From assembly GCA_964566535.1 (NCBI GenBank), contig CAZMIO010000002.1, forward strand, positions 136,905 through 200,904: a stretch of 64,000 nucleotides of DNA, written 5' to 3'. Below the pieces are notes generated by a model that was given only the letters and a program-made list of their open reading frames with translations, was not told where the DNA came from and made no database searches. Origin of the DNA: an uncultured Methanosarcinales archaeon (GTDB lineage Archaea > Nanobdellota > Nanobdellia > Woesearchaeales > CAZOXR01). A program made the translations under genes and the position numbers. Below are positions 16,087-57,333 of the stretch, piece after piece (the stretch's first letter is position 1; the number at the start of each line of letters is the position of its first letter).

Positions 16087-17187
16087 ATGACAAGTATCTC
16101 AATAATTGGAGCAGGCCCAATAGGTAGCTATACTGCCCAGTTACTATCAAAAAAAGGATTCCAGGTAAATCTGATAGAAGAGCACAAGGAGATAGGAACT
16201 CCAATTCAGTGTACTGGAATTTTAACCTCTTCAATAAAAAAAGTCCTAAAACTAAAAAAAGACCTCATCCTAAATAAATTAAATAATATCGAAGTAGTAG
16301 CCCCAAACAAGACCTCAATCAGTTTCAACCTAAAAGAAGAAGAATTTATCATAGATAGACAAAAATTTGACCACTATATATACAATAAAGCAATTGACGG
16401 AGAAACAACCCCTTACCTAAACCACAGATATATGAACATGAAAGGTAACAACATCACAATAAGAGACCTAAAAAATAAAAAAATAAAGAATATCAAAACA
16501 GACATCCTAATTGGAGCTGATGGCCCATTAAGTCAAGTGGCAAAAACATCAGGCCTATTTAACAACAGAAAGTTCTTATTAGGCATTCAAGCCAGGATAA
16601 AGACAAAAAACGACCCCTCCACCTACAAAACCTTCTTTGGTAAAAACTTCCCAAATTTCTTTGGATGGTTCGTCCCAGAATCAAAAGACATAGCAAGAGT
16701 AGGCCTAGCTGCACATAACAACTCAAAATTCCATTTCGAAAACTTCATAAAAAAATTCAAAGGAAAGATAATCGAAAAACAGGCAGGATTAATCCCTATA
16801 CATAACAGCAAAATAAAAACCCAAAAAAACAACACATTCCTTGTAGGGGATGCTGCCTGCCAAACCAAAAACACCACCGGAGGAGGAATCATCCCAGGAT
16901 TAATCTGCTCAAAAGCATTAACAAGCTCAATAACAAACAACCTGGACTACGAAAAAGAGTGGAGAAAGAAGATTGGAAGCCAACTTTTCATCCACAAGAA
17001 AATAAGGGAAACACTTGATAATTTCTCAGATAAAGATTATAATTATCTAATCAAATTATTATCAAACAAAAAAACAAAGCGGGTTATTGAATCAAATAGC
17101 AGAGAATCGCCTTCAAAACTAATATCTCACCTTCTACTTACAGAACCTAAACTATTACTCTTCATGAAAAATCTAAAATTGTTCTAA
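16087..17187 (+). CDS. geranylgeranyl reductase family FAD-dependent oxidoreductase
   Basis: 366 aa. N-terminal dinucleotide-binding IIGAGPIGSYTAQ and overall similarity to archaeal digeranylgeranylglycerophospholipid reductases. Confidence 0.75.
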   Translation: MTSISIIGAGPIGSYTAQLLSKKGFQVNLIEEHKEIGTPIQCTGILTSSIKKVLKLKKDLILNKLNNIEVVAPNKTSISFNLKEEEFIIDRQKFDHYIYNKAIDGETTPYLNHRYMNMKGNNITIRDLKNKKIKNIKTDILIGADGPLSQVAKTSGLFNNRKFLLGIQARIKTKNDPSTYKTFFGKNFPNFFGWFVPESKDIARVGLAAHNNSKFHFENFIKKFKGKIIEKQAGLIPIHNSKIKTQKNNTFLVGDAACQTKNTTGGGIIPGLICSKALTSSITNNLDYEKEWRKKIGSQLFIHKKIRETLDNFSDKDYNYLIKLLSNKKTKRVIESNSRESPSKLISHLLLTEPKLLLFMKNLKLF

Positions 17188-18672: not shown

Positions 18673-18845
18673 TGTCAAAAATCGAGATTTTTGAGCATGC
18701 TCAGAAATGTTTCATTTATGACATATCAAAAATCACCACGATTTTTGAGTATGCTCGGAAATCTATAGTTTCCGACATGTCAAAATACAACCAAGATAGG
18801 GCAAGTAAGAGGTAGTGGGGTTTTTGAGTATGTACAAAATCAAAA
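18673..18845. repeat. approx. 2.5 direct repeats of about 55 bp, each containing TTTTTGAGYATGCTCRGAAAT (12-bp perfect palindrome TGAGCATGCTCA at 18692-18703)
   Basis: Seen directly. Copies at 18688-18708, 18743-18763 and a degenerate copy at 18821-18840. They lie in the divergent promoter region between the radical SAM gene (start 18635, minus) and aglB (start 18886, plus). Confidence 0.5.
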
Positions 18846-18885
18846 GATTTTTATTAAGATTATTTTTCCCAATTAAAAGATTAGG

Positions 18886-21800
18886 ATGTTTGATGACCAA
18901 AAAGATGATGATGATGAAATTTCTTTAGACTTTAGTAAGATTTCCAACTTCTTCAAAGGGAAGAAGAAAGAGAATAAAGAAACAACTACTCATAAATCCA
19001 AGGAAGAAGAAATAAACAAACTTTCGAGTGAAAACAAAGAAGATTTAGAAAGTTCCAAGACTTCTCAAAAAGAAACAGAACCTCAAAAAGAAGAAAATAT
19101 TCAGGAAATAAAAAAAGAACCAGAAATAAAAGAAGAACCAAAAGAAAAAGATCTATCAGATGATGAAGAAGAGGATGAAGTTTCTCTAGATTTCAGTAAG
19201 ATAACTAATATGTTCAAAGGGAAGAAGGAAGATGATAAAGAAGACGAAATAAAAAAAGAAGCTAAATCTGAAGCCGCAGAACAAAACCCAACTGAAGAAT
19301 CAGAGGAGGAAGAGATTAGTTTTGATTTTAGCAAGATAAAAAGTTTTTTTAAGAAAAAAGAAAAATCTGAAGACCAATCTGACCAAGAAGAGGATAGCGA
19401 AGAAGGCATATCATTAGATTACAAAAAAACATTTGGCTCTTTAAAAAAACATAAAAACATTCTGATTCCTTTGATTATAATCTTATTTGTTATGTCGTTA
19501 AGTATTCATCTAAGGATCCATTCTGCATACCTACCAGTAACTGATAACTGGGCCAGAGATAATGTCCATAATTTTATGAGGTCTCAAATAAGAGGGCAAA
19601 TAGACCAACAGTATCCTAATCTACCTGATAATAACAAAAATGCACTAGTTGAAAGCGAATTTCAAAAAGTACTCAAAGAACAAAAGGGCCAACTAGACCA
19701 ACAAATTACGGCTACATCTCAACATCTAAAATCTCAACTACAAAACGATAATGGTCAGACCTACTTAATAGCAATAGACCCATACTTCTGGATGAGACAA
19801 GCAAAGAATATTATAGACCATGGTTTCCCGGGAGATGAACTTAAAGACGGAATCCAATGGGACAATCACATGTTTGCCCCATTAGGAAGACCAAATCCCC
19901 CAGATGTATTCCATCCTTATTTTGAAGCATACGTTTATAACATTTGGAGCTTCTTCAATAAAGAAGTAGGAATAATGAAAGTTGCTTTTTTCATTCCAGT
20001 CATAATCGCAACACTCTCAGTAATTCCAGCATTTTTCATCGCTAGAAGGGTTGGTGGAAATTTCGGCGGGTTTATTGCAGGAACGTTTGTTGCAATAAGT
20101 CCTGCTTTCTTAAACAGAACAGTAGGGGGTTTCTCAGATACAGATGCATATAATGTCCTATTACCTCTTCTGGTAGCCTGGCTCTTCATAGAAGCTATTC
20201 AAACAGACAAACTAAAAAACTCAATAATTCTCGCCTCACTTTCAGGGCTAATAGTTGGAATTTTTAGCCTAGCATGGGGGGGATGGTGGTATGTTTTTGA
20301 TTTTGTACTAATAGCATACTTAGTTTACCTTGTCCACTCATTAATCACTAGTAATAAAAAAACCACCAATAGTAATTTAAAACGTCAATCAAGAAAAAAC
20401 ATCTTAATTATAGGCATTGTCCTTTTACTCTCATCTGCCATCTTTGTCAGTACATTTACAAGTTTTGATAGTTTCAAAAATGGATTCCTTTCCCCAATTG
20501 ACTTTACAAAGATCAAAGACGTTGCTGTGGATAGAATCTGGCCAAATGTACTTACAACTGTAGCTGAACAAAACGAAGCAGGAATAGATTCCTTAATATC
20601 CAATATTGGCGGTAAATTTTTATTCATCATAGCATTAATGGGGATCATTTTAGCCTTAACAAAAAAGGACTCTAAAAACATTAATGATCTTTGGTTCATA
20701 CTATTCTCTGCAATATGGTATACAGTAATAATTTTATCATTTACAAATCCAGAACTTATCACTTTTTTAATCCTATTATTGATCCCTATTGCTCTAAAGA
20801 TTATATTATCAACCATGAAAAAAGAAGTAAACGTAAATTTAATGGTAGCTTCCCTAATTACTGTATGGATCCTATCTACATTATATGCTGGAACAAAGGG
20901 TATCAGATGGGTCCTCCTTTTAGTTCCGGCATTTAGCATAGCAATGGGAATTGCATTAGGAGTATTATACAAATATCTCCATAATACAATCTCTAATGAA
21001 TTCAAAGTACACAAAATTTTATCCAAATTGGCTGTGATCATATTACTCTCCTTGCTCTTATTAGGCCCATGGAATGCAGCAAAATCAATTGCACAAAATT
21101 CAATACCTAGTATGAATGATGCATGGTATAACTCACTAGACAAAATAAATAGAGAGGGTGCTCCAGATGCAATTATAAACTCATGGTGGGATTTTGGTCA
21201 TTGGTTCAAAGCAATAGGTGATAGGGCAGTTACATTCGACGGCACCACCCAGGATACCCCTCAAGCACACTGGATCGGGAGAGTCCTCTTAACAGACGAT
21301 GAAGACACAGCCATTGGGATATTAAGAATGTTGGATTGTGGTGCCCACAAAGCATTTGATGAAGTAAACAATGATATCAAAGATACTGCAAAATCCACAG
21401 AAATATTATATCAAATTTTTGTTTTGGATAAAGAAGAAGCAAAAAACGTCCTCTTAAGCCATGATCTAGATGAAGAAGCAACCACAAACATTCTAGACTT
21501 TACTCACTGCGACCCTCCAGAGAACTACTTCATAACTTCAGAAGATATGGTCCAAAAATCAGGAGTATGGTCTCACTTTGGATCATGGGATTTTAACAAA
21601 GCTCAAATTTATAATACAATAAGCAAAAAAGAATACAAAGAAAATGAACAATCATCAATAGATTATTTATCAGATAGATTCAATTATTCTGAAAATGAAG
21701 CAAAAGACATTATCAATCAGGTAAACTCATTAACAAACAGCAAAGCAGTTAATGATTGGATTGCTCCTTGGCCAGGTTATGCTTCTGGAATTAACGGATG

Positions 21801-22428
21801 TCAAAAATTATCGGATGAAACATTTGCATGTAACATTGGTGGAGGTCAAGGACTTCTAAACACCACTACTATGGACTTCAGTATTGGTACACCGGAGGGA
21901 GTCAAGCATCCAGACTTCCTAATATACCCCACAGAAGAAGGTCTAGTTAAAAAAGAATATAACGATACAATTGGATTAGGCATGGTTGTAATGCCATCCG
22001 GAGACGGATTTGTAAACTTATTCATGTCCCCTCAATTAACAGGCAGCATGTTCACAAGACTATTCTTTATGGAAGGTCATGGTCTAAAACATTTTGAGAA
22101 ATTTAGTGATGAGCGAAGTGTTTTCGGAAGTAGAATTATCGTATGGAAGGTTGACTGGGAAGGCAAACAAGAAAATGTCCTTCCTCACTTCAACGAACCT
22201 GAAGAAGAACTGATTACTAAAGAAGTAATAGAAGATAAGAATGAAGATAACAAAACAACAGACGAAACGTTAGAAGAAAATAAATCAAACAAACAAACAA
22301 CAAATATACAGAATAATTCAGATAAAGAAGTAACAAACGAATCAGGAAACACCTCAGACAATCAAACAATTGATTCCAAAGATATAAAAACAGACAATAG
22401 TTCTACTTCTCCAAATGGAACAGGATAA
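18886..22428 (+). CDS. aglB: oligosaccharyltransferase AglB (STT3 family) with unusual N-terminal repeat extension
   Basis: 1180 aa. Multi-TM core with diagnostic WWDYG-type motif (INSWWDFGHWF) and a long C-terminal soluble domain. Residues 1 to about 190 are a charged extension carrying four degenerate repeats (acidic run-ISLDFSKI..FFKGKK). ATG start preceded by AGG. Confidence 0.85.
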   Translation: MFDDQKDDDDEISLDFSKISNFFKGKKKENKETTTHKSKEEEINKLSSENKEDLESSKTSQKETEPQKEENIQEIKKEPEIKEEPKEKDLSDDEEEDEVSLDFSKITNMFKGKKEDDKEDEIKKEAKSEAAEQNPTEESEEEEISFDFSKIKSFFKKKEKSEDQSDQEEDSEEGISLDYKKTFGSLKKHKNILIPLIIILFVMSLSIHLRIHSAYLPVTDNWARDNVHNFMRSQIRGQIDQQYPNLPDNNKNALVESEFQKVLKEQKGQLDQQITATSQHLKSQLQNDNGQTYLIAIDPYFWMRQAKNIIDHGFPGDELKDGIQWDNHMFAPLGRPNPPDVFHPYFEAYVYNIWSFFNKEVGIMKVAFFIPVIIATLSVIPAFFIARRVGGNFGGFIAGTFVAISPAFLNRTVGGFSDTDAYNVLLPLLVAWLFIEAIQTDKLKNSIILASLSGLIVGIFSLAWGGWWYVFDFVLIAYLVYLVHSLITSNKKTTNSNLKRQSRKNILIIGIVLLLSSAIFVSTFTSFDSFKNGFLSPIDFTKIKDVAVDRIWPNVLTTVAEQNEAGIDSLISNIGGKFLFIIALMGIILALTKKDSKNINDLWFILFSAIWYTVIILSFTNPELITFLILLLIPIALKIILSTMKKEVNVNLMVASLITVWILSTLYAGTKGIRWVLLLVPAFSIAMGIALGVLYKYLHNTISNEFKVHKILSKLAVIILLSLLLLGPWNAAKSIAQNSIPSMNDAWYNSLDKINREGAPDAIINSWWDFGHWFKAIGDRAVTFDGTTQDTPQAHWIGRVLLTDDEDTAIGILRMLDCGAHKAFDEVNNDIKDTAKSTEILYQIFVLDKEEAKNVLLSHDLDEEATTNILDFTHCDPPENYFITSEDMVQKSGVWSHFGSWDFNKAQIYNTISKKEYKENEQSSIDYLSDRFNYSENEAKDIINQVNSLTNSKAVNDWIAPWPGYASGINGCQKLSDETFACNIGGGQGLLNTTTMDFSIGTPEGVKHPDFLIYPTEEGLVKKEYNDTIGLGMVVMPSGDGFVNLFMSPQLTGSMFTRLFFMEGHGLKHFEKFSDERSVFGSRIIVWKVDWEGKQENVLPHFNEPEEELITKEVIEDKNEDNKTTDETLEENKSNKQTTNIQNNSDKEVTNESGNTSDNQTIDSKDIKTDNSSTSPNGTG

Positions 22429-23077
22429 TGTTTGGGCAGTAATCCCCGCTTATAACGAAGAAGAAAACATTATTAACGTAATAAAAGAGACTAAAAAATA
22501 TCTCAGTAACATCGTAGTCGTGGACGATGGATCAAAAGACCGCACATACGAAGTAGCTAAACAAGAAGGGATCATTGTACTAAAACACATTATCAATCTA
22601 GGAAAGGGTGCAGCTCTAAAGACAGGTTGTGATTTTACCCTAAAAAAAGAAGCAAATAAAATAATTGTTTTAGATTCAGATAACCAACACGAGCCTTCAG
22701 AAATACCTAACTTCTTAAACGAATTAAAAAATAAAGAAGTAATATTGGGCTACAGAAAAAGAAACAATGAAATGCCCTTCATCCTAAAACTGGGCAACTT
22801 CATAATAAACAGAATAACAAAATTATTATATAACGTAGAATTACATGACACTCAATGTGGTTATAGAGCATTCACATCTGATGCATATAAAAAAATCAGA
22901 TGGAAAGCCTCAGACTACAGTATGGAGTCTGAAATGATAGCAAACATTGGAAAAAATAAATTAAGTTATACCCAAATTCCGATAAAAACAATCTATGTAG
23001 ATAGATATAAGGGAACAACAATCATAGATGGAATAAAAATTGTATTAAACATGATTTGGTGGAAAATAACAAAATAA
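22415..23077 (+). CDS. family 2 glycosyltransferase (dolichyl-phosphate sugar synthase-like, AglJ/AglD-type)
   Basis: 220 aa. AVIPAYNEEENI...VVVDDGSKD...LDSDNQH motifs of GT2 Dpm1-like enzymes. Overlaps the aglB stop by 14 nt (translational coupling). Confidence 0.8.
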   Translation: MEQDNVWAVIPAYNEEENIINVIKETKKYLSNIVVVDDGSKDRTYEVAKQEGIIVLKHIINLGKGAALKTGCDFTLKKEANKIIVLDSDNQHEPSEIPNFLNELKNKEVILGYRKRNNEMPFILKLGNFIINRITKLLYNVELHDTQCGYRAFTSDAYKKIRWKASDYSMESEMIANIGKNKLSYTQIPIKTIYVDRYKGTTIIDGIKIVLNMIWWKITK

Positions 23078-23078
23078 A

Positions 23079-23438
23079 ATGGCACAAGGAATTTTAGGGA
23101 TTCAGATTTTAGGAACATTATTTGGTATTTTTATGATCTATTACACCTTCCTCCACCATAAGAGGAAAGAATTAACAGCTAAGGAGTATCTATTCTGGGT
23201 TATTCTTTGGTCATTGTTCCTAATTTTAACATTATTCCCAAACCTGGTATCTCCATTCATAAAATCAATTGGCTTTGCAAGAACTCTAGACTTCTTCATT
23301 GTAGCAGGTTTCATGTTTTTAATTGGAAGTCTATTCTACATTTACTTATTAGTCAGAGGAAACCAAAAGAAAGTAGAGAACATTGTAAGAAAGATAGCAA
23401 TTGAAAAAAACGAAGAAAACAAAAATAATTTAAATTAA
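23079..23438 (+). CDS. small membrane protein (DUF2304-like) associated with glycosyltransferases
   Basis: 119 aa, four hydrophobic helices. Positioned immediately after GT2 as DUF2304 proteins usually are. Assignment from memory only. Confidence 0.5.
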   Translation: MAQGILGIQILGTLFGIFMIYYTFLHHKRKELTAKEYLFWVILWSLFLILTLFPNLVSPFIKSIGFARTLDFFIVAGFMFLIGSLFYIYLLVRGNQKKVENIVRKIAIEKNEENKNNLN

Positions 23439-23456: not shown

Positions 23457-24599
23457 ATGAAAATTTTATTTGTCTTAGAAAATTTCTACCCCCACATTGG
23501 CGGAGTAGAAACTGTATTTGAAAATCTTGCTAAAGGATTGACCAAAGAGGGCCACAAAGTAACAGTTCTCACATCCTGGATAAATGGAACGCAAGGGATA
23601 GAAAAAAAAGATAACTATACAATCATAAGACATAGATGTCCTCAATTTCTAAGAAGATACTGGTTCTCATTCCTCGCAATCCCCAGAACAATTAGTCTAT
23701 CAAAAGATTACGACTTAATCCACACCACTACCTACAACGGAGCTCTCCCTGCAAAAATAGCTTCACTCTTCAACAAAAAACCCTCAATCATTACTGTCCA
23801 TGAAGTCCTTGGAAAAAACTGGAAAACCCTTTCAGGACTAAGCAGTTTATCTGCCAAACTCCATCAACTATTCGAAAAATTAATCATTGCCCTAAACTTC
23901 AATGTCTATGCATGCGTCTCAGATTCCACAAAAAAATCATTACTAAAATCTAACATCAAAGAACAAAAAGTAAAAGTTGTCTATAATGGAATTGATTATG
24001 ATTTCTTCAATCCAAAAAAATACAAAAATGAAAAAAATAAAATCAGAAAAAAACTAAATATAAAAGATAGTTTCATCTACACTTCTTATGGTCGTCCAGG
24101 AATAACAAAAGGTATTGAATATTTAGTAAAAGCCGTTCCCCAAATATCAAAAATCCTACCAAATTCAAAACTCTTACTTATCCTAAGCAAAAGCCCAGAA
24201 GATAGATACAATCACATAATCAACCTAATAAAAAAACTAAAGATAGAGAAGAACATAATCTTATTAGAACCTCAAAAAAGAGAAAACCTCCCAAAATACA
24301 TAATCTCTTCTGATTGTGTAGTAGTTCCTTCCATTACCGAGGGTTTTGGTTATACTGCAGCAGAAGCATGTGCTCTTGACATCCCAGTAATAACTTCAGA
24401 CACAACATCACTACCAGAAGTAGTTTCAGGCCAATACATTTTAATACCACCTAAGAATCCAGAAGCAATAGCTGGGGCAGTTATAGACATGCAAAAAGGA
24501 AAATTCAGTAAAAAACCTAAGAAATACTTCACCATCAAAGAAAATATTCAAAATTACTTAAAAATTTACAAAAAGTTGGTTGATGATGACAGATCATAA
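23457..24599 (+). CDS. family 4 (group 1) glycosyltransferase
   Basis: 380 aa. GT-B fold and C-terminal EX7E-type motif (EGFGYTAAEACALDIPVITSD). Confidence 0.8.
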   Translation: MKILFVLENFYPHIGGVETVFENLAKGLTKEGHKVTVLTSWINGTQGIEKKDNYTIIRHRCPQFLRRYWFSFLAIPRTISLSKDYDLIHTTTYNGALPAKIASLFNKKPSIITVHEVLGKNWKTLSGLSSLSAKLHQLFEKLIIALNFNVYACVSDSTKKSLLKSNIKEQKVKVVYNGIDYDFFNPKKYKNEKNKIRKKLNIKDSFIYTSYGRPGITKGIEYLVKAVPQISKILPNSKLLLILSKSPEDRYNHIINLIKKLKIEKNIILLEPQKRENLPKYIISSDCVVVPSITEGFGYTAAEACALDIPVITSDTTSLPEVVSGQYILIPPKNPEAIAGAVIDMQKGKFSKKPKKYFTIKENIQNYLKIYKKLVDDDRS

Positions 24600-57196: not shown

Positions 57197-57333
57197 CAAG
57201 AACCGCCAATCAAAGATAGATGGAATATAACAAATTATTGCTACGCCTGTTGGTTCTTGAGCATGCTCAGAATTTTCCTGAAGCCCACATTGGATGTTGA
57301 ATCACTAATCAGAGACCAGATGGAAAATTCTGA
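57197..57333. promoter_or_regulatory. nested inverted repeats including palindrome TGAGCATGCTCA between convergent genes (terminator or structured RNA)
   Basis: Seen directly. CAAGAACC (57197-57204) pairs with GGTTCTTG (57251-57258). TGAGCATGCTCA at 57258-57269. TCAGAATTTTCC (57267-57278) pairs with GGAAAATTCTGA (57322-57333). Oligo-T tract at 57184-57195 directly after the ilvC stop. Confidence 0.35.

Follow-up and report, generated by a model that had tools for sequence, protein, structure and literature searches.

We examined a 64-kb stretch of DNA from an uncultured archaeon (contig CAZMIO010000002.1; the whole stretch is referred to below as the window), which encodes on its forward strand the oligosaccharyltransferase (OST) AglB/STT3. 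The open reading frame (ORF) spans nt 18886-22428, stop codon included, and specifies 1180 aa; its assignment is based on the ORF listing, Pfam and Foldseek. The first 189 residues (nt 18886-19452) form a tail in front of the first transmembrane helix (TM1), and this tail carries four copies of a short motif. We find that the tail is a genuine translated part of AglB, that it is specific to one archaeal lineage and that it is under selection. The enzyme itself is known; what is new is a clade of AglB proteins with a conserved, AglB-specific, multi-copy cytoplasmic module, and a literature search turned up no published description of this tail. As to its function, we favor, tentatively and without quite holding it to be probable, a multivalent cytoplasmic tail that binds the membrane surface through amphipathic helices resembling that of MinD.

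The homolog set consists of the 120 best database matches (43-56% identical, 950-1224 aa), which stem from metagenome-assembled genomes (MAGs) of Woesearchaeota, Nanoarchaeota and Pacearchaeota. Almost all full-length homologs have a segment of 80-240 aa before TM1 with the same motif. The consensus of 252 instances is E-E-x-x-[ED]-D-[ED]-E-I-S-[ILF]-D-F-[SGK]-K-[IVL]-K-N-[IFL]-F-K-K-K-K (consensus motif peptide EEDDEISIDFSKIKNFFKKKK; helical half of the family consensus IDFSKIKNFFKK). The module is about 18-20 residues long and is composed of an acidic run, I-S-[ILF], D-F-S-K-I-K-N-F-F and a stretch of lysines. Its fixed positions are D at position 3 (99%), F at position 4 (97%) and K at position 6 (96%), and over 90% of the instances are acidic from position -3 to position -1. 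An alignment of orthologs had been proposed as a check in the initial annotation of this DNA, and it shows that the extension is kept in about 120 homologs, mostly with three or four copies. According to a hidden Markov model (HMM) of the motif, the number per protein ranges from zero to six, with four as the mode (46/121) followed by three (39/121); all copies lie before TM1, and the proteins with zero copies are truncated or have a start called within TM1. Across the family the first copy begins at about residue 3 and the last one overlaps the start of TM1, the median gap between motif end and TM1 being -3 residues.

In the protein encoded in the window, the first copy occupies aa 9-26 (DDEISLDFSKISNFFKGK; nt 18910-18963; 35.8 bits with the motif HMM), and its F23 is invariant in an alignment of 80 sequences. 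The second (EDEVSLDFSKITNMFKGK; aa 96-113, nt 19171-19224) and the third (EEEISFDFSKIKSFFKKK; aa 141-158, nt 19306-19359) score 32.9 and 32.6 bits, respectively. The fourth copy (EEGISLDYKKTFGSLKKH; aa 172-189, nt 19399-19452; 19.7 bits) is degenerate and juxtamembrane, and its D178 is at least 90% conserved in the 80 sequences. The I/V residues of the four copies are found at aa 12, 99, 144 and 175 (nt 18919, 19180, 19315 and 19408). All four repeats described in the initial annotation are therefore present according to the family-derived model, but they are not tandem, as had been stated there: the copies are dispersed, with start-to-start spacings of 87, 45 and 31 aa and unrelated spacers between them, and Tandem Repeats Finder reports only small low-complexity arrays, none of which matches the motif copies. 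Given these irregular spacings, the lack of an array and a distance between copies 1 and 2 that varies from 41 to 122 aa in the family, we rejected a tandem-repeat domain.

Conservation was measured as the frequency of the majority residue in each segment. It reaches 0.80 in motif 1, 0.71 in motifs 2 and 3 and 0.55 in motif 4, compared with 0.67 in the catalytic core and 0.23-0.32 in the spacers. When copies are compared between proteins by position, copy i against copy i, identities are 0.72, 0.64, 0.61 and 0.47 and exceed the off-diagonal values, while copies inside one protein are no more similar to each other than copies of different proteins. This positional orthology without within-protein likeness indicates that the duplication is older than the radiation of the family and that selection has maintained the copies, with no concerted evolution among them. 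Their synonymous sites are randomised with respect to each other, which together with the positional orthology rules out recent duplication or gene conversion. The earlier claim that the repeats are conserved at the protein level and not at the DNA level is essentially correct. Codon sharing at identical residues is close to what codon usage predicts (10/15 for copies 1 and 2, where 7 are expected, and at or below expectation for the other pairs), but copies 1 and 2 are still 72-79% identical in nucleotide sequence over 78 nt. In single-copy homologs the motif stands directly before TM1, e.g. MGKKKKEKEPEISFDFSKIKNFFSGKNTAAWLIL, which suggests that the juxtamembrane copy may be the ancestral one. 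Two further features of the family were observed: an extra conserved element, approximately [DE]EISVD[AT][KQ]KSKISGIPENS[DE]EEFS[LI]DF, just before the last motif in homologs P0021, P0046, P0073, P0077 and P0128, and a variant KIKNIKNIFKK that is often seen in copy 3. In 'binchicken' MAG records (L015, L004, L024 and others), contigs with this Woesearchaeota-type AglB are labelled Gammaproteobacteria or Methanosarcinales, which is probably a result of mis-binning or automatic mislabelling.

The motif is restricted to AglB. We scanned one genome per GTDB species with a degenerate DNA pattern for E-I-x-h-D-F-x-K-I-K-N (77 loci) and metagenome contigs with a pattern for D-F-x-K-I-K-N-h-F-K (120 loci). 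In both scans, all matches to the full signature are located in STT3-homologous ORFs or in ORFs cut by the end of a contig or locus; the remaining matches have no acidic prefix or basic suffix and are due to chance, as in the case of the recurring ADIRDFxKIKNLFKN of epimerase-like ORFs. With the motif HMM, nothing outside aglB scores above 7 bits among all six-frame ORFs of the window, and no motif was found outside AglB in 520 kb of related loci (the 77 loci of the first scan). A phmmer search with the tail against 1.84 billion representative proteins yielded 35 matches, all of them AglB or N-terminal AglB fragments, including divergent, less AT-rich members such as DEDISIDFSKIKAFFRGKKKEG. 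An artefact of AT-rich composition is ruled out: members with more Arg, Ala and Gly (P0144, P0151) keep the motif, and D over E at position 3 and F over I/L at position 4 are not composition-driven choices.

Several known motifs were compared with the tail. The PCNA-interacting-protein (PIP) box, Q-x-x-[ILM]-x-x-[FY]-[FY], was considered for I-x-x-F-F with the following basic run and rejected: in 97% of the 252 instances F stands where the PIP box has Q, and PCNA binding by a membrane OST has no rationale. An EF-hand loop fails at the Gly and the terminal Glu. A pattern of the LC3-interacting-region/Atg8-interacting-motif (LIR/AIM) or SUMO-interacting-motif (SIM) type, i.e. [WFY]-x-x-[LIV] with an acidic flank, which binds a ubiquitin-like fold, is formally there in D-F-S-K-I; Lys within the core is atypical, and we regard this as a lead only.

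The reading frame of the tail is supported by several lines of evidence. The initial annotation held the long stop-free stretch to be very unlikely by chance and the extension to be coding, and both points are borne out; translation from M1 is supported by the homologs, which retain the extension and have their first motif at about residue 3. The tail region (29.9% GC with 50% A, in a window of 35.7% GC) has no stops in the coding frame and 5-29 in each of the other five frames, and 0 of 20,000 shuffles of the region are stop-free. Gene calls in the NCBI (GCA_030750365.1), JGI and ENA assemblies give the identical protein, always 1180 aa long. An in-frame TAA (nt 18874-18876), read from the sequence, lies 9 nt 5' of the start codon, therefore the ORF has no further upstream extension. 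A TATA-like box (TTTATTAA, nt 18850-18857), likewise read from the sequence, lies about 30 nt 5' of the ATG; it is a putative promoter and suggests, from the geometry of archaeal promoters, a leaderless or short-leader mRNA that would begin at M1. The initial annotation had named orthologs lacking the region, with frameshift signatures in it, as evidence that would speak against coding; orthologs have the region, and there are no signs of frameshifts.

It could be argued that translation truly begins near TM1 and that the upstream frame is non-coding or belongs to a fused upstream gene, given that long N-terminal tails are generally rare in AglB and that purine-rich low-complexity DNA leaves a shadow ORF of 102 aa open on the opposite strand. 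However, M1 and M109 are the sole Met residues before TM1, with M109 within motif 2 and M203 already inside TM1, and the motifs are under purifying selection in about 120 homologs, where the first of them is found at residues 3-12. Taken with the stop-free frame, the upstream stop and TATA-like box and the agreement of three independent gene calls, these observations effectively refute such an artefact, to which we assign hardly any probability.

The tail is polyampholytic and predicted to be disordered. The first 190 residues include 41 E, 38 K, 22 S and 21 D, in agreement with the earlier description of about 190 E/K/D-rich residues before TM1, which is located at aa 190-214 (nt 19453-19527; AlphaFold2 helix and hydropathy scan). 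The tail has a charged fraction of 0.52 and a net charge of -0.125 per residue. When the entire protein was scanned with Pfam and NCBIfam, no domain was identified within aa 1-190. In the full-length AlphaFold2 model, which was built with an alignment of 80 sequences (the same number that was used for residue invariance), aa 1-177 have a predicted local distance difference test score (pLDDT) below 50 and show no docking on the AglB core. Short helices are modelled on the C-terminal half of each motif (aa 17-20, 104-110 and 151-159), and a helix at aa 179-188 runs into TM1, with pLDDT climbing to 75-93 and exceeding 90 in TM1. By the established topology of STT3, PglB and AglB, the tail is expected to face the cytoplasm, because a single TM helix lies between it and the external loop with the catalytic Asp; the cytoplasmic placement in the initial annotation is supported to this extent.

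Three properties of the module lead us to favor binding to the membrane surface: the match of its C-terminal half to the helix of MinD, the juxtamembrane and helical position of the last copy, and the restriction of the motif to AglB. The amphipathic helix that targets Bacillus subtilis MinD to the membrane has been used experimentally in the form KGMMAKIKSFFG, and the C-terminal half of the motif matches it position by position (M/F-A/S-K-I-K-S/N-F-F-G/K). The helical half of copy 3 is FDFSKIKSFFKK, and its KIKSFF is identical to the core of the MinD helix; KIKNFF is also present in the membrane-active peptide CRAMP. The N-terminal membrane helix of SepF was considered as a further parallel, but a literature search found no support for the sequence in question (MSMKNKLKNFF), and it carries no weight here. 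The net charge is similar, as is the hydrophobic moment (0.39-0.47 for the motifs and 0.52 for MinD), and peaks of hydrophobic moment in the tail fall on the four motifs. A HeliQuest-type D factor is 0.7-1.4 compared with 1.48 for MinD. A tandem pair of MinD helices binds membranes considerably better than a single helix, and the tail likewise carries several copies. The likeness has its limits. It is a short resemblance and not homology, and the membrane binding of the tail is a prediction. The MinD helix is a single C-terminal anchor of a soluble ATPase and is not preceded by an obligatory acidic run and I-S-I-D, while AglB is an integral membrane enzyme with three to four internal copies, each preceded by these elements. 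The tail does not belong to the class of terminal anchors represented by MinD and FtsA, since its copies are internal or N-terminal on a polytopic protein; it would share with that class at most the same physical mechanism.

The mechanism that we envisage is as follows. Each module would form a short amphipathic helix that begins at the near-invariant Asp as N-cap, with the hydrophobic residues at positions 2 and 7 acting as a 'hydrophobic staple' and with the acidic N-flank and basic C-flank stabilising the helix dipole; the start of the helix at h-D-F-S-K-I is proposed on the basis of established helix-capping rules. The face composed of F4, I7, F10 and F11 would insert in the cytoplasmic leaflet and the Lys run would contact anionic lipid head groups, as in a helix of the MinD type. 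The last copy would be forced onto the membrane surface as it runs straight into TM1, and the three upstream copies, being duplicates of it, would most likely have the same role through weak and reversible binding. Jointly the copies would fasten the acidic, disordered spacers to the inner face of the membrane around the enzyme. More speculatively, the tail may organise the local cytoplasmic face of the membrane beside the OST; it could affect the composition of lipids or of the dolichol-phosphate carrier, membrane curvature or packing, or it could provide a platform for peripheral enzymes of the pathway. The tail would have no part in catalysis itself, which takes place on the outer face.

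Several considerations weigh against membrane binding. An integral protein with presumably 13 TM helices needs no membrane targeting, and the gain from extra surface helices is unclear. The strict conservation of D, F and K and the near-obligatory acidic run exceed what is seen in generic lipid-binding helices; strictness of this kind is encountered more often in motifs that bind a protein stereospecifically. An anionic membrane should repel the acidic run. Amphipathicity is moderate, in that no 12-mer of the tail reaches a hydrophobic moment of 0.6 and the tail does no better than shuffled tails; the confidence of the AlphaFold2 helices is low. The resemblance to MinD covers 6-8 residues and, being a likeness of short sequences, could be convergent or fortuitous.

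The strictness of the motif brings in a different explanation, namely that the copies are short linear motifs for a specific cytoplasmic partner and that the tail is a multivalent scaffold which brings several copies of this partner, or an oligomer, to the OST. Candidate partners would be the peripheral glycosyltransferases (GTs) of the lipid-linked glycan, as suggested in the initial annotation, components such as the signal recognition particle (SRP), FtsY, Sec or the ribosome, or a division or cytoskeletal protein. Besides the residue-specific conservation, a disordered tail with conserved islands is the typical architecture of short linear motifs, a variable copy number is what multivalent scaffolds show, and aglB lies in a conserved cluster with a family 2 GT (GT2) that has no TM helix and overlaps the aglB stop codon, a DUF2304 protein and a geranylgeranyl reductase. 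On the other hand, no partner was identified, and the motif was found in no other protein, so that it is not a shared ligand of a common adaptor. The AlphaFold2 model shows the tail not docked on AglB itself, and the last copy abuts TM1, which restricts the access of a globular partner. Capping of a helix by an Asp N-cap and a hydrophobic staple also accounts for the strictly conserved residues. Pairs of GT2 and DUF2304 genes are common in organisms whose OST has no such tail. We consider docking of this kind, which ranks close behind membrane binding, possible but doubtful, and the evidence favors membrane-surface-binding amphipathic helices at least as strongly as a tether for GTs.

The high charge and disorder of the tail, together with spacers of variable length, would also agree with a tail that engages in no discrete binding and serves as a bristle, be it entropic or electrostatic, or contributes to topogenesis or stability (e.g. 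N-in orientation of TM1, spacing of OSTs), in which case the repeats would be a duplicated juxtamembrane segment. The Lys-rich segment before TM1 agrees with the positive-inside rule, and single-copy forms retain the juxtamembrane motif alone. However, a mere spacer would not hold three distal copies at the level of the catalytic core (0.71-0.80 and 0.67, respectively) through the history of the family, and topogenesis requires only the copy beside TM1. This explanation appears improbable to us.

Tails of comparable character are known elsewhere. The A-domain of FtsY, the bacterial SRP receptor, comprises about 200 N-terminal residues that are disordered and strongly acidic. With its lipid-binding amphipathic helices it keeps a machine associated with the membrane in place on the inner surface, and it makes contact with the translocon. 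It resembles the tail of AglB in its length, acidity and disorder, but it belongs to an unrelated, peripheral protein, has no sequence similarity to the tail, and its helices do not repeat a single conserved motif. In eukaryotic OST, the C-terminal domain of ribophorin I and the N-terminus of STT3B are likewise appendages that face the cytoplasm, and ribophorin I contacts the ribosome; according to the alignment, the N-terminus of STT3B is longer than that of STT3A by about 54 residues. These parts belong to other subunits or sequences and contain no repeat motif, while the archaeal enzyme is single-subunit. It is conceivable, though rather unlikely, that the tail is a multivalent adaptor that couples the single-subunit OST to a cytoplasmic machine, either the ribosome, SRP and Sec translocon or the peripheral enzymes that assemble and flip the glycan. 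If the former were true, glycosylation would be co-translocational, as via ribophorin I and other accessory subunits in eukaryotic OST; the latter would amount to an N-glycosylation 'metabolon' in genome-reduced DPANN archaea. Under either form of coupling, amphipathic helices might make it dependent on membrane potential or curvature.

Among the enzymes of archaeal N-glycosylation, AglB alone is universal. Little is known about the organization of its cytoplasmic side or about a possible link of archaeal glycosylation with either translocation or the building of the lipid-linked glycan. An entire lineage of uncultivated archaea with small cells (Woesearchaeota/Nanoarchaeota) retains on this enzyme a cytoplasmic module conserved at the level of the active site, which points to a function absent from model organisms. 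Being short, clearly delimited and confined to AglB, the motif can serve as a marker of this AglB clade in metagenomes and is directly testable.

The assignment of the protein as an AglB/STT3 oligosaccharyltransferase, made in the initial annotation, is corroborated by Pfam, fold and catalytic motifs, which concur. The Pfam STT3 profile (PF02516) matches aa 287-724 (E = 8e-48; 164.3 bits, cutoff 24.5), and a second, weak match to the STT3/PglB core is found at aa 764-903. The NCBIfam archaeo_STT3 and PglB matches do not reach their equivalog cutoffs, which leaves the subfamily unassigned. The full-length AlphaFold2 model has a predicted template modeling score (pTM) of 0.77 with core pLDDT mostly above 90. 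Foldseek retrieves PglB (6gxc, E = 3.5e-16), Archaeoglobus fulgidus AglB (7e9s, E = 5e-13), human STT3A and STT3B and yeast Stt3, with E values of 1e-16 to 1e-10 overall. The model and these matches show the GT-C fold, i.e. an N-terminal multi-TM domain followed by an external globular C-terminal domain. In phmmer alignments against the PDB, IDPYFW (D298), D418-T-D420 and SWWDFGHW are aligned with the catalytic DPYF, D-N-E and SWWDYGYQ of human STT3A, respectively. Residues D298, D418, D420, T-T-V-A-E-Q-N at 557-563 (corresponding to the TIXE-type motif of external loop 5, T557-T558-V559-A560-E561) and W767, W768, D769 and G771 are invariant in the 80 sequences. The protein would thus be predicted, from its sequence, to transfer a lipid-linked glycan to the Asn of N-X-S/T sequons, and the genomic context fits such a pathway.

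From TM1 to about aa 1106 the core is that of a typical OST of the AglB/STT3/PglB family (CAZy GT66, GT-C fold), and it keeps the catalytic motifs, i.e. the Asp in external loop 1 (EL1), D-T-D, T-V-A-E and WWDFG. EL1 (aa 215-340, nt 19528-19905; pLDDT above 90) bears the IDPYFW motif, and WWDFG is located at aa 767-771 (nt 21184-21198), aligned to WWDYG of STT3A. Unlike the solved or characterized members, which start about 10-45 residues before the EL1 motif region, this enzyme has 190 cytoplasmic residues ahead of TM1; residue 295 aligns with residue 46 of STT3A and residue 100 of STT3B. The clade also adds a low-complexity C-terminal tail and, in EL1, a conserved insertion (about 80 aa; nt 19528-19760, aa 215-293) that separates TM1 from the motif with the catalytic Asp. 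The insertion is modelled as three helices (aa 218-242, 248-265 and 267-283; pLDDT above 90), contains an invariant P-N-L-P and is part of the reason why the STT3 profile starts only at aa 287. The external C-terminal tail (aa 1107-1180, nt 22204-22425) is rich in N, S, T, D and E, disordered (pLDDT below 50) and poorly conserved (0.19). We also observed that PDB chain 8i9p_Lh, a 935-aa protein named as an OST and present in about 20 entries, has an extra N-terminal region, its alignment to the STT3 core beginning only at residue 241. The homolog P0103, an AglB of this clade, contains PpiC-type rotamase Pfam domains in an apparent fusion to a peptidyl-prolyl isomerase, and the C-terminal sequence of P0142 is FKBP-like by eye; such fusions, if real, would provide a link between glycosylation and folding at the outer face.

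The neighboring genes for the geranylgeranyl reductase, the GT2 and the DUF2304 protein are located on the same strand as aglB. Upstream lies a gene of the geranylgeranyl-reductase family (nt 16087-17187; TIGR02032, 174.7 bits, cutoff 158.8), which is the most conserved neighbor, with a homolog in 37 GTDB loci that have a tail-bearing AglB; in these archaea it could saturate the dolichol carrier or membrane lipids. Downstream, the start of the GT2 gene (nt 22415-23077; PF00535) overlaps the end of aglB by 14 nt. Its product is similar to polyprenyl-phosphate sugar synthases of the AglJ/PpgS type, with NCBIfam PpgS and AglJ matches that are both below cutoff, and homologs were found in about 20 related loci. 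It is followed by the small membrane protein of family DUF2304 (nt 23079-23438; PF10066, E = 1.5e-20), which has homologs in 16 related loci; a GT4 gene (nt 23457-24599) is likewise located downstream of aglB in the cluster. The cluster fits an N-glycosylation/dolichol-pathway island, which alone establishes no link between the tail and any of the encoded proteins.

A palindrome of 21 nt (TTTTTGAGCATGCTCAGAAAT) was noticed at nt 18688-18708, 18742-18762, 18821-18839 and 57254-57274, that is, in two to three copies in the intergenic region between a divergent radical-SAM gene and aglB and in one copy in another intergenic region. A search of the window allowing up to 3 mismatches gave 4 matches where 0.01 would be expected, two of which are both strands of the first copy (18687-18708); the copy at nt 18821-18839 is weaker and comes from the repeat finder. 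The palindrome may represent an operator or else a dispersed repeat of small size.

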